DNA of 64,000 nt from an uncultured Clostridia bacterium. GTDB taxonomy: Bacteria; Bacillota; Clostridia; TANB77; CAG-508. Position 1 is the first letter of the stretch; every line of letters starts with the position of its first letter. The DNA is taken from NCBI GenBank assembly GCA_947599825.1, contig CANQFS010000002.1:8669-72668 (forward strand). The letters run 5' to 3'. Positions 35,574 through 46,084 of the stretch are shown here, piece after piece. The notes below the pieces were generated by a model that saw nothing but the letters and a program-made list of their open reading frames with translations, ran no database searches and had not been told where the DNA came from. The translations under genes and the position numbers were made by a program.

Positions 35574-35734
35574 TTGCTACTTACTCCCTTCTCTTTTGCT
35601 TTTACTTTACTATTATACCATTTTTTAGCATACAAGTATACTATTTTTTATAAAAAAATAGATGCTTTTATTTTGCATCTATTTTTCTATTTTTCAATTT
35701 TTAATTCACAATCTAGTTTTAAAAAGAAGCAAGC

Positions 35735-35840
35735 AGTGCTAGGAAAGCTAGGCAAATAACCGGAGGCGTACGTGCTGTAGCCAAAGGATTATTTGACCGA
35801 CGCTTGACAACGCAATGCGATGCTTATTTTTCAAAACTAT
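35735..35840 (+). repeat. E-family repeat element copy 1 (TTGCTAGG...hairpin...TTGACAACGCAAtGcgATGC)
   Basis: Shares conserved termini with the copies at 38935, 45632 and 45215 (inverted). Confidence 0.55.
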
Positions 35841-37153
35841 TCTAAGAATCCTTTGTAATGTCTCATTACAAGTTGAGATTCTAATTGTTGTACTGTTTCT
35901 AAGGCAACACCTACTACAATTAAGATTGATGTTCCACCAAAGGCAATATTTAAGTTGGTAAATCTAAGTAGCATTGGAATAATCGCAATTACTGCTAAGA
36001 ATAAACCTCCAAATAGTGTAATTTTTGAGATAATAGAGCTTAAATAGTCTGTTGTTGGCTTTCCTGCTCTAATTCCTGGTATAAATCCACCATTTTTCTT
36101 AATATTGTTTGATACTTCTGCTGGGTTGAAAGTAGCATAAGTATAAAAATATGTGAAGCCTAAAATTAGTAGTAAGTATACTATTGCGTTTGCAATTGAG
36201 TATCCTACTGGAACATTTGATGTTGATGTTGCAATAGAGAATTTATAAATTACACTCCAGAACCCTGTTTCGCTTGCAATGTTTGGTACAAACATTTGAA
36301 TTATCATGGCTGGGAATGTCATAAATGATGAAGCAAAAATAACTGGCATTACACCTGCCATAGCAAGTTTTAATGGAATGTTCGTATTTTGTGCTCCTAC
36401 CATTTTTCTTCCTACTACTCTTTTTGAATATTGTACTGGGACTCTACGTTCTGCTTGTTGTACAAATACAACTCCTGCAACTAAAATAATTGCTCCTATA
36501 ATAATTCCTAGTCCAATTAGTAGTCCTGTTGTTGAGAATATTCCTGTTCCAAATATTAAATCCCAAATTGTTGTTAATCCTGATGGAAGACCTGCTATAA
36601 TACCAACAAAGATAATCATAGAAATTCCATTTCCAATTCCTTTGCTTGTTATTTGGTCTCCAAGCCACATTAAAAGTGCTGTTCCTGCCATTAATGAAAT
36701 AACGACAGTTGCTCCTGTTAAGAAGCCTGTATCCATAAAGATTCCAGAAGAACGATAAGATAGGTAAATTCCTAATCCTTCGATTAAAGCAAGGATAACC
36801 GTTACTAATTTTGTATAACGATTGATTTTTTCTCTTCCTTCTTCTCCACCTTCTTTGGTTAATCTTTCTAATGCAGGGATAACCATTGCTAATAATTGAA
36901 TAACAATAGATGCTGTAATGTATGGGCTAATTGACATTGCAAAAATAGATAAACGAGAAAAAGCTCCTCCTGAGATTAAATCTATTAATGATGCCATTCC
37001 TTGATTATTAAATGCTTCTGCAAGTGCAAAGTTATTTACCCCTGGAACAGTAATGTAACAACCTAATCTAAATACAACGATTAGAATTAGGGTATATAAT
37101 AATCTTTTTCTAACATCTGGCGTTTTTAACGCATTTTTTATTGTTTGAAACAA
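35837..37153 (-). CDS. secY: Preprotein translocase subunit SecY
   Basis: 438 aa with 10 TM helices. Confidence 0.9.
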   Translation of the reverse strand: MFQTIKNALKTPDVRKRLLYTLILIVVFRLGCYITVPGVNNFALAEAFNNQGMASLIDLISGGAFSRLSIFAMSISPYITASIVIQLLAMVIPALERLTKEGGEEGREKINRYTKLVTVILALIEGLGIYLSYRSSGIFMDTGFLTGATVVISLMAGTALLMWLGDQITSKGIGNGISMIIFVGIIAGLPSGLTTIWDLIFGTGIFSTTGLLIGLGIIIGAIILVAGVVFVQQAERRVPVQYSKRVVGRKMVGAQNTNIPLKLAMAGVMPVIFASSFMTFPAMIIQMFVPNIASETGFWSVIYKFSIATSTSNVPVGYSIANAIVYLLLILGFTYFYTYATFNPAEVSNNIKKNGGFIPGIRAGKPTTDYLSSIISKITLFGGLFLAVIAIIPMLLRFTNLNIAFGGTSILIVVGVALETVQQLESQLVMRHYKGFLE

Positions 37154-38852: not shown

Positions 38853-38934
38853 ATTTTTCTCCTTTCTACTAATGTAACAGCATTAGTAATTTAGATAGTT
38901 TATAAGTTATTATGAAACAAAGCAAAAGTGGTAT

Positions 38935-39035
38935 ATTGCTAGGAAAGCAAATAAAAATTTTTGAGATAATACGAGTTTGTATATCGAAAAAATTTTTATG
39001 CAGCTTGACAACGCAAGATGCCGCTTTTCATTTGT
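38935..39035 (+). repeat. E-family repeat element copy 2
   Basis: Reads ATTGCTAGGAAAGC...long AT hairpin...GCTTGACAACGCAAGATGC. Confidence 0.55.
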
Positions 39036-39037
39036 TT

Positions 39038-39577
39038 CTACTTCTTACCTGCTTTACCTTCTTTTCTTCTAATATGCTCATCTGCATATTTAATACCTTT
39101 ACCATGATATACTTCTGGTGGTCTCTTTGTTCTTACTACTGCTGCTGTTTGACCAACTGCTTCTTTATCTATTCCTTTAACTATAATTGTATTTGGGTTT
39201 GGAACATCAAATGTAATTCCTGCAGGTTCTTCCATTTCTACTGGGTGAGAGTAACCTAAATTCATTACTAATTTCTTTCCTTGTTTTTGTGCTCTATATC
39301 CAACACCAACAATTTGTAATTCTTTTTGATATTCATTACGAACACCTTCTATCATGTTTGCTATTAAAGTTCTTGTTAATCCGTGTAAACTTCTATTTGC
39401 TGCTTCATCATCTGGTCTTGTAACATGAATTACATTTCCTTCAATTGCAACACTCATGTTTTTGTGGATTTCTCTTTCTAATGTTCCTTTAGGTCCTTTT
39501 ACCGTTAAATGTGTTCCATCTAATTTTACTTCTACACCTTCTGGTACGGTAATAGGTTTATTTCCTATTCTTGACAT
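39038..39577 (-). CDS. rplF: 50S ribosomal protein L6
   Basis: 179 aa. Confidence 0.9.
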
Positions 39578-44356: not shown

Positions 44357-45184
44357 TTATTTTCTTCTCTTAACAATCATTTTGTTAGATTTTTTATTTT
44401 TCTTTCTAGTCTTGTATCCTAGAGCTGGTTTACCCCAAGGTGTCATTGGTCCTGCGTGTCCTACTGGAGCTCTACCTTCACCACCACCATGAGGGTGATC
44501 TACTGGGTTCATAACAGAACCTCTAACTGTTGGACGAATTCCTAAATGTCTTGTTCTTCCTGCTTTACCTAGTTTTACGTTTTCATGATCTGTGTTTCCT
44601 ACAGTTCCGATAGTTGCTCTACATCTTGTCATAACTAATCTCATTTCTCCAGATGGAAGTCTTACGTGAGCATATTTTCCTTCTTTAGCCATTAATTGTG
44701 CTTCTTGGCCAGCTGCTCTTACCATTTTTCCACCTTGGCCTGGATTTAATTCTATGTTATGAATCATAGTACCTACTGGAATTGCTTCAATTGGCATTGC
44801 ATTTCCTGGTTTAATATCTGCTTTTTGTCCAGATACTACTTTGTCACCATCGGTTAGTCCTACTGGTGCTAAGATGTAGCTTAAAGTTCCATCTTCATAT
44901 TTTATTAAAGCGATGTTAGCACTTCTGTTTGGGTCATATTCAATACCTACTACAGTTGCTTCCATATCATCTTTGTTTCTTTTAAAATCAATTACTCTAT
45001 ATTTTTGTCTATTTCCTCCACCTTGGTGACGAACTGTTACTCTACCATAAGAGTTTCTTCCTGCTTTTTCTTTCTTTACTGTTAATAAAGATTTTTCAGG
45101 AGTTTTTTTGGTAATTTCGTCAAATGTAGAAACTGTTGTGTTTCTTAATGATGGGGTTGTTGGTCTAAAGTGTTTCATTCCCAT
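44357..45184 (-). CDS. rplB: 50S ribosomal protein L2
   Basis: Starts [11 protein letters not shown], with AAGGAG 7 nt upstream. The N-terminal extension on the ORF track was rejected. Confidence 0.88.
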
Positions 45185-45214
45185 TTTGTTTCTCCTTTCG
45201 GATTTATGAAAAAC

Positions 45215-45302
45215 TTCGTCTTGCGTTGTCAAACTTCGCTTCGAAATTTCTTGGTGTACCAATGTACACCTGCGGATTTCTTGCTCGTTTTCCTAGCAAT
45301 AC
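45215..45302 (-). repeat. E-family repeat element copy 4, in inverted orientation relative to copies 1-3
   Basis: The plus strand reads GTCTTGCGTTGTCAAAC...GGTGTACCAATGTACACC...TTTCCTAGCAAT. It forms an inverted pair with copy 3 around the small ORF. Confidence 0.55.
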
Positions 45303-45410
45303 TCGTTTTTGCTAAATCCTCTTACTTTCTTAATATTTACGGTTATTTTTCCTGCCCCGCATTAGCAGATATTCTTTCTTTTCCGAGTTATTTCTCGATA
45401 AAATCTTTAT

Positions 45411-45584
45411 TTATCTTTCTTCTCTTCTTTTTAAAATTTCTTCTCCATTTACAAATCTTTCTAATGCTTTGTCAAATATTTCTTCTTGATTTTCTGGTGG
45501 TAAACAATATTTTGCTATAAATCCATCTTCTGGAATTTTATTTCTTTTTAAGAATTCTTTTCTTTTTTCACTTGTTTCGCTCAT
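45411..45584 (-). CDS. Small hypothetical protein (57 aa) inserted between rplW and rplB
   Basis: An ORF flanked by inverted E-elements, with RBS GGAAGGTG. No homology was recognised. Confidence 0.35.
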   Translation of the reverse strand: MSETSEKRKEFLKRNKIPEDGFIAKYCLPPENQEEIFDKALERFVNGEEILKRREER

Positions 45585-45631
45585 ATTTTTCACCTTCCTC
45601 TATTTTTAGACAAACGAATCAAAATTAGTAG

Positions 45632-45745
45632 ATTGCTAGGCAAATTTAATAATTAACACCTGAGGCGTACGTGTGTACGTTGAAGGTTTAATTATTAAAT
45701 TTAACGACGCAAGATGCTGATTTTCATTCGTTTAGGCTAAGCACC
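45632..45745 (+). repeat. E-family repeat element copy 3
   Basis: Reads ATTGCTAGGCAAAT...18-bp AT-rich stem around CGTACGTGTGTACG...TTAACGACGCAAGATGC. Confidence 0.55.
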
Positions 45746-46084
45746 CATGAATTCATCAATTGAATCTTTGTATTTCTTTGTCATTTTTGTAGCTTTTCCG
45801 CCTTTAGCAAGATATGTTTTTTCAGCTGGATTAGTATCAATTGTTACAATTGCTTTTTTCCAATCTGAAGTTTTTCCTTCATATCTTCCCATTCTTTTCA
45901 TTTTTCCTTTTACAGTAACAGTATTTACTTTTAATACTTTTACTTCAAATAATTTTTCTACTGCGTTTGCAATATCAACTTTTGTTGCTTTTTTATTTAC
46001 TTCAAAAGTGTATTTTCCTTCTTGCATTCCATCATTACTTTTTTCTGTTATAACAGGTGCAATGATAATATCTTCTGGTTTCAT
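45737..46084 (-). CDS. rplW: 50S ribosomal protein L23
   Basis: 115 aa. Confidence 0.9.

Follow-up and report, generated by a model that had tools for sequence, protein, structure and literature searches.

The window examined here, a stretch of 64,000 nucleotides from an uncultured Clostridia bacterium (GenBank assembly GCA_947599825.1, contig CANQFS010000002.1), carries a ribosomal-protein cluster in which rplW and rplB, the S10-operon genes for proteins L23 and L2, are separated by an unusual spacer that is the subject of this study. The spacer runs from 45185 to 45736 in a part of the window where every gene lies on the - strand, and these gene coordinates bear out the length of 552 nt given for it in an earlier first-pass annotation, a set of notes made from the sequence alone. 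Reading from rplW to rplB along the mRNA, it contains a palindromic repeat that we call E element D, a small open reading frame (ORF) of 57 codons that we call ORF57, a hairpin with an adjoining pseudoknot, and a second, inverted repeat, E element C. Two further E elements, B and A, lie elsewhere in the cluster (Table 1). The first-pass annotation had recognized the two inverted repeats and an ORF with its own ribosome-binding site, which the motif pairs, our covariance model and the GAGGAAGGTGA sequence ahead of the ORF all substantiate, and had read them together as a tiny foldback or transposon-like cassette, an interpretation that the comparisons described below lead us to abandon.

Table 1. 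Features of the rplW-rplB spacer, its flanking genes and the further E elements, in window coordinates; R1 is the covariance model of the E family
Feature	Position	Strand	Basis and details
rplW (ribosomal protein L23, 115 aa)	45737-46084	-	ORF list; Pfam PF00276, E = 1.5e-32; stop TAG 45737-45739
E element D	45606-45740	+ (better-folding strand; antisense to operon)	R1 110.8 bits, E = 3.4e-26
Shine-Dalgarno region of ORF57 (GAGGAAGGTGA)	45589-45600	-	direct sequence reading
ORF57 (orphan small protein gene, 57 aa, three helices predicted)	45411-45584	-	ORF list
Hairpin H1 and H-type pseudoknot	45339-45398	-	H1 45383-45398; stem CTGC/GCAG 45365-45368 / 45352-45355; loop GCGGG 45356-45360 with CCGT 45339-45342
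E element C	45193-45325	- (better-folding strand = mRNA sense)	R1 94.4 bits, E = 7.6e-22
Shine-Dalgarno of rplB (AAAGGAGAA)	45190-45198	-	direct sequence reading
rplB (ribosomal protein L2, 275 aa)	44357-45184	-	Pfam PF00181 and PF03947
E element B, between rplF and rplR	38909-39044	+ (better-folding strand; antisense to operon)	R1 113.5 bits
E element A, between secY and adk	35710-35844	+ (better-folding strand)	R1 88.4 bits

The E element is an imperfect hairpin of ~135 nt. We gathered more than 120 loci carrying its motif pair from species-representative genomes and aligned 82 non-redundant copies (alignment A3) to build the covariance model R1, which has 49 base pairs. Applied to the 64-kb window, R1 recovered exactly four copies, with E-values of 3e-20 to 7e-27. 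The motif pair itself, CTTGCG..N..CCTAGCAA, occurs at 45220-45299 (+), 45633-45713 (-) and 38936-39017 (-), where 0 occurrences are expected in 100 shuffles, and the fourth copy, after secY, is slightly divergent. Each copy folds into a single long imperfect hairpin (z-scores -3.8 to -9.1). The base of the element D hairpin overlaps the rplW stop codon, and its minimum free energy is -47.4 kcal/mol on the + strand vs -34.2 on the - strand; for element B the better and weaker strands give -40 vs -28.4 kcal/mol. Element C is oriented opposite to D, and the end of its hairpin directly adjoins the rplB Shine-Dalgarno sequence. The ~100-nt terminal inverted repeats described in the first-pass annotation are thus inverted members of one family with common motifs and a common architecture, but each is ~135 nt long, and they are identical at only 51% of positions in a model-based alignment, unlike the terminal inverted repeats of a transposon; the outer end of the rplB-side copy reads TCGTCTTGCG rather than GCATCTTGCG. 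Likewise, the solitary copies that it numbered 1 and 2 belong by R1 to the same family as C and D. All four copies fall within the S10-spc-secY/adk ribosomal cluster (35.7-45.7 kb), with none in the other ~54 kb of the window.

Beyond the window, R1 matched 148 copies spread over 100 related loci, a single 8-kb ribosomal locus holding as many as five. In the R1 alignment 84.7% of cells are paired, compared with 63% after column shuffling and 39-46% with slid partners; the alignment was fitted to the model, which favours structure, and the margin over the slid controls is still large. Compensatory, two-sided changes occur in 47 of the 49 consensus pairs. E copies are kept at the same positions, with compensatory substitutions, across metagenome-assembled genomes (MAGs), and the internal loops of the hairpin are conserved and asymmetric, with tandem G·A motifs on one strand only. 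The family spans Clostridia, Bacilli, Saccharibacteria and Proteobacteria and is absent from E. coli. At gathering thresholds Rfam gave no match in the window; relaxing the cutoff to E = 10 for 45150-45800 yielded nothing relevant, nor did a cutoff of E = 1 for eight loci drawn from six phyla. A phage origin was considered and rejected: BLAST found no match in phage genomes, and the 15 viral-contig sequences that matched the pattern fall outside the family.

ORF57 is preceded by a strong ribosome-binding site. Its homologues are confined to four clusters, each of them located at the rplW-rplB junction. ORF57 or a homologue fills this slot in the window, L005, L012 and L008 (L-numbers denote the loci compared), and a divergent homologue carrying the same motifs does so in L048. 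This confinement answers the suggestion of the first-pass annotation that other copies of the ORF be sought, since none was found outside that junction. The protein has no match in Pfam, NCBIfam or PHROG and no remote homologue, and a profile search of 1.84 billion representative proteins returned three hits only. An AlphaFold2 model shows three helices at moderate confidence (predicted local distance difference test score, pLDDT, 72) and matches no fold in the PDB. In all four clusters the frame is uninterrupted, each indel being a multiple of three, and in the conserved core the window and L008 differ by 5 synonymous and 3 nonsynonymous codons, which are weak signs that the gene may be under purifying selection. 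ORF57 is best treated as a probably real but orphan small protein. Other relatives fill the same slot differently: L102 and L103 hold an unrelated ORF of 96 or 134 aa, L042 holds another of 119 aa, and in L062, L074 and L078 the slot is empty of ORFs of 30 aa or longer, as it is in L015 except for a frame of 30 aa that extends through both the leader and the E element. The slot ORFs of L042, L102 and L103 run through the conserved hairpin and end in ...EPGE*. Loci with such a variable spacer are L042:1972-2597, L102:694-1372, L103:2190-3116, L048:1123-1655 and L085:4821-5191, and their slot ORFs are mutually unrelated.

Between ORF57 and element C, on the mRNA strand, lie hairpin H1 and an H-type pseudoknot whose closing CCGT is preceded by an A-rich linker. 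Both are present in 12 of 12 relatives whose L23 is 75-100% identical to that of the window, always upstream of rplB. In the alignment of these relatives 97.6% of cells are paired, compared with 34-50% with slid partners, and 7 of the 14 pairs show two-sided compensatory change, spread over all three helices; L008, for instance, has GTAGA/TCTAC where most relatives have GCGGA/TCCGT. The structure has no Rfam match. Its conservation and covariation make it a candidate cis-regulatory leader of rplB or of the distal S10 operon. Like known ribosomal-protein leader RNAs, it sits in a 5' leader, that of rplB, is conserved within a clade and covaries; it differs from them in matching no Rfam leader family and in that, in most relatives, a hairpin of the transposon-derived family to which the E elements are assigned below stands between the pseudoknot and the Shine-Dalgarno sequence.

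Comparison of the same 12 relatives indicates that the parts of the spacer have separate histories. The spacer varies from 220 to 940 nt across related MAGs, and its constant order is H1 with the pseudoknot, then a C-type element, then the Shine-Dalgarno sequence and rplB; L008 and L010 lack C. A D-type element lies 3' of rplW in most of these relatives, and the segment between D and C is variable. Copies at the D position occur in L005, L062, L102, L103, L048, L074 and L078, and copies at the C position in L005, L015, L042, L048, L062, L074, L078, L083, L085, L102 and L103. The nearest relatives of D are the copies at the same position after rplW in L005 (0.98) and L102 (0.78), and those of C are the copies before rplB in L042 (0.80), L083 (0.70), L048 and L062. 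The parts occur in several combinations: both elements are present with no ORF between them in L062, L074 and L078 and with an unrelated ORF in L102 and L103; L015 has only C; L042 combines C with yet another unrelated ORF; and L008 and L010 have ORF57 without C and with an unrelated AT-rich hairpin at the D position. In L008 this hairpin (L008:443-600) spans ~130 nt, consists of AATGAATAAT-type repeats and is not recognized by R1. Because more distant relatives have C, its absence from L008 and L010 looks like loss.

The nature of the E family emerges from young copies in other genomes. A Geopsychrobacteraceae chromosome carries four near-identical 146-bp copies at unrelated loci, with sharp ends CAGGCTGTTGAAAAAC...GTTTTTCAACACCCTG and 4-bp direct repeats CTAG, TTAG, CTAG and ATAG, in which the variable first base is the same on both sides. 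Copies on Pseudomonas megaplasmids are flanked by TTAA/TTAA (on a Pseudomonas veronii plasmid) and TTAG/CTAG, a Methylophilaceae copy by TTAA/TTAA with the upstream stop codon included, and two Saccharibacteria copies by TAG/TAG and TAA/TAA. A scan of metagenomes for the terminus found many short elements of 94-270 bp that share it, and the same scan found seven elements of 1298-1445 bp with identical termini and YTAR flanks. The ORFs of two of these long elements encode IS5-family transposases (NCBIfam NF033581, 277 and 259 bits against a cutoff of 140; Pfam DUF772 and DDE_Tnp_1). The termini CAGG[C/G]TGTTGAAAAAC are common to the 140-146-bp E-type copies and the 1.3-1.45-kb IS5-family elements, and R1 recognizes 140-bp copies with intact termini (e.g., L157, 50.7 bits, E = 2.5e-9). 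At the family level, E therefore has the features of a MITE (miniature inverted-repeat transposable element): it shares termini with a transposase-coding insertion sequence, is flanked by a 4-bp YTAR duplication, and is short, non-coding and present in multiple copies. These comparisons identify E as a MITE family probably derived from IS5-family insertion sequences, with a chain of resemblance that leads from the window copies through model R1 to the young MITEs and from these to the IS5-type insertion sequences. That an IS5-type transposase may mobilize the elements is supported indirectly, by the near-identity of copies found at unrelated loci and by the fact that the window has C and L008 lacks it. 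Many of the short elements at the metagenome loci L151-L270 carry the CAGG[C/G]TGTTGAAAAAC terminus and YTAR flanks and are otherwise unrelated; because unrelated short elements have this terminus and these flanks in common, the IS5-type group appears to have given rise to many MITE families besides the E type.

E elements are placed and oriented with a strong bias. In most intergenic copies the conserved core begins 20-25 nt past the stop codon of a same-strand upstream ORF (an ORF of at least 60 codons in 84 cases), and the palindrome starts 0-3 nt after that stop or supplies it (...EFEK*). In L086, L080, L104 and L038 the upstream protein continues a few codons into the element, where AAAAATAA provides the stop (...EFEK*, ...QFQK*), such that the element contributes both C-terminus and stop codon. 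The ten upstream genes that we checked encode S12 (two, one from Kangiella), S7, L14, L5, L11, IF-1, S13, L10 and NusG, to which the window adds L23, L6 and SecY. The YTAR target includes TAA or TAG, and insertion into a stop codon therefore leaves the gene whole, which accounts for the tolerance of such insertions and not for their enrichment. Among co-directional gene pairs one orientation outnumbers the other by 62 to 13, and convergent pairs outnumber divergent pairs by 22 to 6. In 108 of 126 copies the better fold is on the strand antisense to the upstream gene (mean -39.6 vs -31.8 kcal/mol). On the gene-sense strand, isolated mismatches in the Watson-Crick helices comprise 118 C·A vs 4 G·U, and conserved U·G and G·U pairs, like the tandem G·A motifs, occur only on the better-folding strand. 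Mutational bias does not explain this asymmetry, as cytosine deamination on the exposed sense or leading strand would place G·U on the sense strand, the opposite of what the mismatch counts and GC skew show. Because the young mobile copies L026, L045, L047 and L089 are already strand-asymmetric (-31 vs -24 kcal/mol for L026 and -24 vs -20 for L045), the asymmetry is a property of the element.

Taken together, these results suggest, with a probability of roughly 0.7, that the 552-nt spacer is an old, vertically inherited mosaic and not a single mobile unit. Its parts would be E elements D and C, each an independent copy of a palindromic MITE (~135 nt) whose family descends from IS5-family insertion sequences; a lineage-restricted 57-aa gene in a variable small-ORF slot; and a conserved hairpin with a pseudoknot that probably serves as the rplB leader. 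We propose that the whole spacer is transcribed within the S10 operon mRNA and that a long insertion would leave the operon intact if each hairpin closes on itself, with the upstream stop codon at its base and the next ribosome-binding site after it. A Shine-Dalgarno sequence of its own would drive translation of ORF57. In elements A, B and D it is the weaker-folding strand that corresponds to the mRNA, and this probably spares the sense strand a very stable hairpin; within operons only those insertions with the weaker fold in the mRNA may have survived. Element C would be a conserved exception: its stronger fold lies in the rplB leader, immediately after the pseudoknot, and the two could act jointly in processing or attenuation.

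Two alternatives concern what the spacer consists of. The arrangement of inverted family members on either side of an ORF with its own ribosome-binding site, in a family that is indeed transposon-derived, might suggest that D, ORF57 and C entered the S10 operon as one composite or foldback transposon, with ORF57 perhaps its own DNA-binding protein. We regard this as very improbable: D and C share just 51% identity, each groups with copies at its own locus in other MAGs, the ORF occurs without C and the pair of elements without this ORF in the relatives listed above (L008 and L010, and L062, L074, L078, L102 and L103, respectively), ORF57 homologues are limited to this locus, and ORF57 matches no transposase or DNA-binding family. 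Nor is the unit bracketed by a duplication, as direct reading of the sequence at ~45190-45204 against 45728-45745 found no direct repeat of at least 4 nt, and none of the 12 relatives has an empty rplW-rplB junction, two further checks that the first-pass annotation had proposed. What stands from that annotation is that the operon tolerated the insertions, for the E elements are transposon-derived and the S10 operon is unbroken. It is also conceivable that ORF57 is non-coding and that its nucleotide conservation reflects an RNA-level element in the leader, as the window and L008 hardly differ in nucleotide sequence over the central 85 nt and diverge on either side, the family is an orphan and the structure model is of moderate confidence only. 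The strong ribosome-binding site, a frame that stays open in four clusters despite indels that are all multiples of three, the excess of synonymous over nonsynonymous differences and the divergent homologue in the same slot of L048 make this an unlikely account of the gene.

A more serious challenge concerns what the E elements do. Several observations weigh against the preferred reading: the window copies have no recognizable target-site duplication and no intact IS5-type termini, retaining only a degenerate outer arm (ATGAAAA/AAAATAA, cf. GTTGAAAAA); their identity as MITEs would thus rest on family membership by the covariance model and on this partially conserved GTTGAAAAA-like arm; the transposase-coding elements in the chain come from metagenome loci; the better-folding strand is antisense to the mRNA in three of the four copies, because of which a simple mRNA-stabilizing role fits poorly; and the conserved asymmetric loops, same-position compensatory evolution across MAGs, multi-phylum spread and enrichment behind ribosomal-protein genes are more than a decaying selfish MITE predicts and point to a function for the host or the element. 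The E elements of this clade might be mainly exapted host elements. Either the hairpin would halt antisense transcription of highly expressed genes, for example as a polar terminator or an insulator on their antisense strand, or it would be a folded single strand of DNA where replication and transcription collide; C and the pseudoknot would form a regulated rplB leader. Retention at the same position across MAGs whose L23 is only 75-88% identical would fit such a role, as would the one-stranded loop motifs, the mismatch and orientation biases, the abutment of hairpins on stop codons, the A-tracts and U-tracts that flank the hairpins, and the enrichment downstream of genes for ribosomal proteins and translation, S12 among them in Clostridia as well as Kangiella. 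However, the asymmetry is already present in the young mobile copies L026 and L045 and may be inherited from a master element, a simple terminator scan does not call the elements, and a strong terminator in the sense direction just upstream of rplB would be harmful; we consider exaptation unlikely as the principal explanation, though by no means negligible. The same scan, based on a terminator consensus, called only a small apical hairpin and not the whole element, and A-rich and U-rich arms bracket the long hairpin on both strands. Extended across several phyla, the idea becomes a speculative proposal that we hold to be similarly doubtful: an IS5-derived MITE would have been recruited as a strand-specific structural element of highly expressed operons, folding antisense to the upstream gene so as to block antisense transcription in a polar manner or to form a hairpin of single-stranded DNA at replication-transcription conflicts, and the inverted copy before rplB, together with the previously undescribed pseudoknot, would have become a leader for the distal S10 operon.

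Returning to the preferred reading of D and C as IS5-derived MITEs in a mosaic spacer, comparison with known repeat families shows where the E elements stand. IS5-family MITEs (DDE_Tnp_1, 4-bp YTAR duplication) are the closest match: E elements are likewise 135-146 bp long, non-coding and multi-copy, and young E copies have CAGGCTGTTGAAAAAC inverted termini and CTAG/TTAG/TTAA duplications in common with the 1.3-1.45-kb IS5-family elements. The window copies differ in having lost recognizable termini and duplications, and the family as a whole differs in being a wholly covarying hairpin with conserved asymmetric loops maintained across phyla and in its strong bias in orientation and in placement behind the stop codons of ribosomal genes. 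To our knowledge, no named MITE family has the E sequence, and a literature search by sequence strings and descriptors found no published description of the family, though one may exist elsewhere in the literature. REP/BIME, REPIN, Correia (NEMIS), RUP, BOX and ERIC sequences are intergenic palindromic repeats that are co-transcribed in operons and favour the 3' ends of genes; REP hairpins stabilize upstream mRNA, and Correia elements are processed by RNase III. E resembles REP/BIME and Correia elements as an operon-internal palindrome that is probably co-transcribed, yet it differs from these repeats in sequence, has no GTAG-type REP head, carries termini and duplications that are IS5-type and not RAYT-associated or TA, and has its better-folding strand antisense to the upstream gene. 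An identity with REP or REPIN was rejected on sequence, length and these IS5-type ends. Chunjie, a MITE found in Geobacter uraniireducens, measures 178-235 bp, with 21-bp terminal inverted repeats and 9-bp direct repeats (PMC3184786), and was set aside for E, whose repeats are 4-bp YTAR and whose length is ~140 bp. An integron attC site (5'-RYYYAAC ... GTTRRRY-3') is excluded by the order of the boxes, with the GTTRRRY-like box on the 5' side and TTKCC as its partner, and by the inverted, not direct, copies around the ORF. We also considered a canonical kink-turn for the internal loop, in which, on the structured strand, UUGC-UAG-GA-AAGC faces GCUU-GA-CAAC-GCAA; the tandem G·A and the bulge of 3 nt agree with such a fold, but the non-bulged strand has four bases too many (CAAC). 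Two candidate expression signals within the element were likewise rejected, namely an outward promoter TTGACA-N18-CATAAA in the Y arm, whose -10 hexamer is not conserved in copies at the same locus and for which a scan found nothing above shuffles, and a mini-ORF from the conserved ATGAAAA, which is missing in the AAAATAA subfamily.

Our findings resolve an apparent 0.5-kb hole in the S10 operon annotation of small-genome gut Clostridia into four identifiable parts and prevent its misreading as a mobile cassette. An unnamed IS5-type MITE family that amasses in one orientation just past the stop codons of ribosomal-protein genes is a convenient system for studying how MITEs are tolerated or recruited in essential operons. 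The rplB-proximal pseudoknot is a candidate regulatory RNA, and the variable small-ORF slot between rplW and rplB is a candidate site for orphan small proteins that ride on the expression of a ribosomal operon.

Several minor features of the family were also noted. In the Oscillospiraceae loci L020, L046 and L097 and the Faecalibacterium locus L043, E elements recur in repeated units, bordered on either side by one and the same terminator-like hairpin or flank, an arrangement suggestive of head-to-tail arrays; the array in L043 contains an assembly gap. A search of Clostridia loci for half-elements beside a transposase found truncated or interrupted copies only. Truncated left halves of E occur at L060:4829 and L101:4041, and the element at L072:6760-6946 carries an apical insertion of ~50 nt (a 187-nt model hit). 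In a rabbit-gut MAG (Lapin-001__bin26, CANPVM010000008.1; L064:5771-5906), which is probably the source of the window or a genome of the same species (uncultured Clostridia, GC ~29%), an element 100% identical to window element B follows an identical L6 C-terminus.

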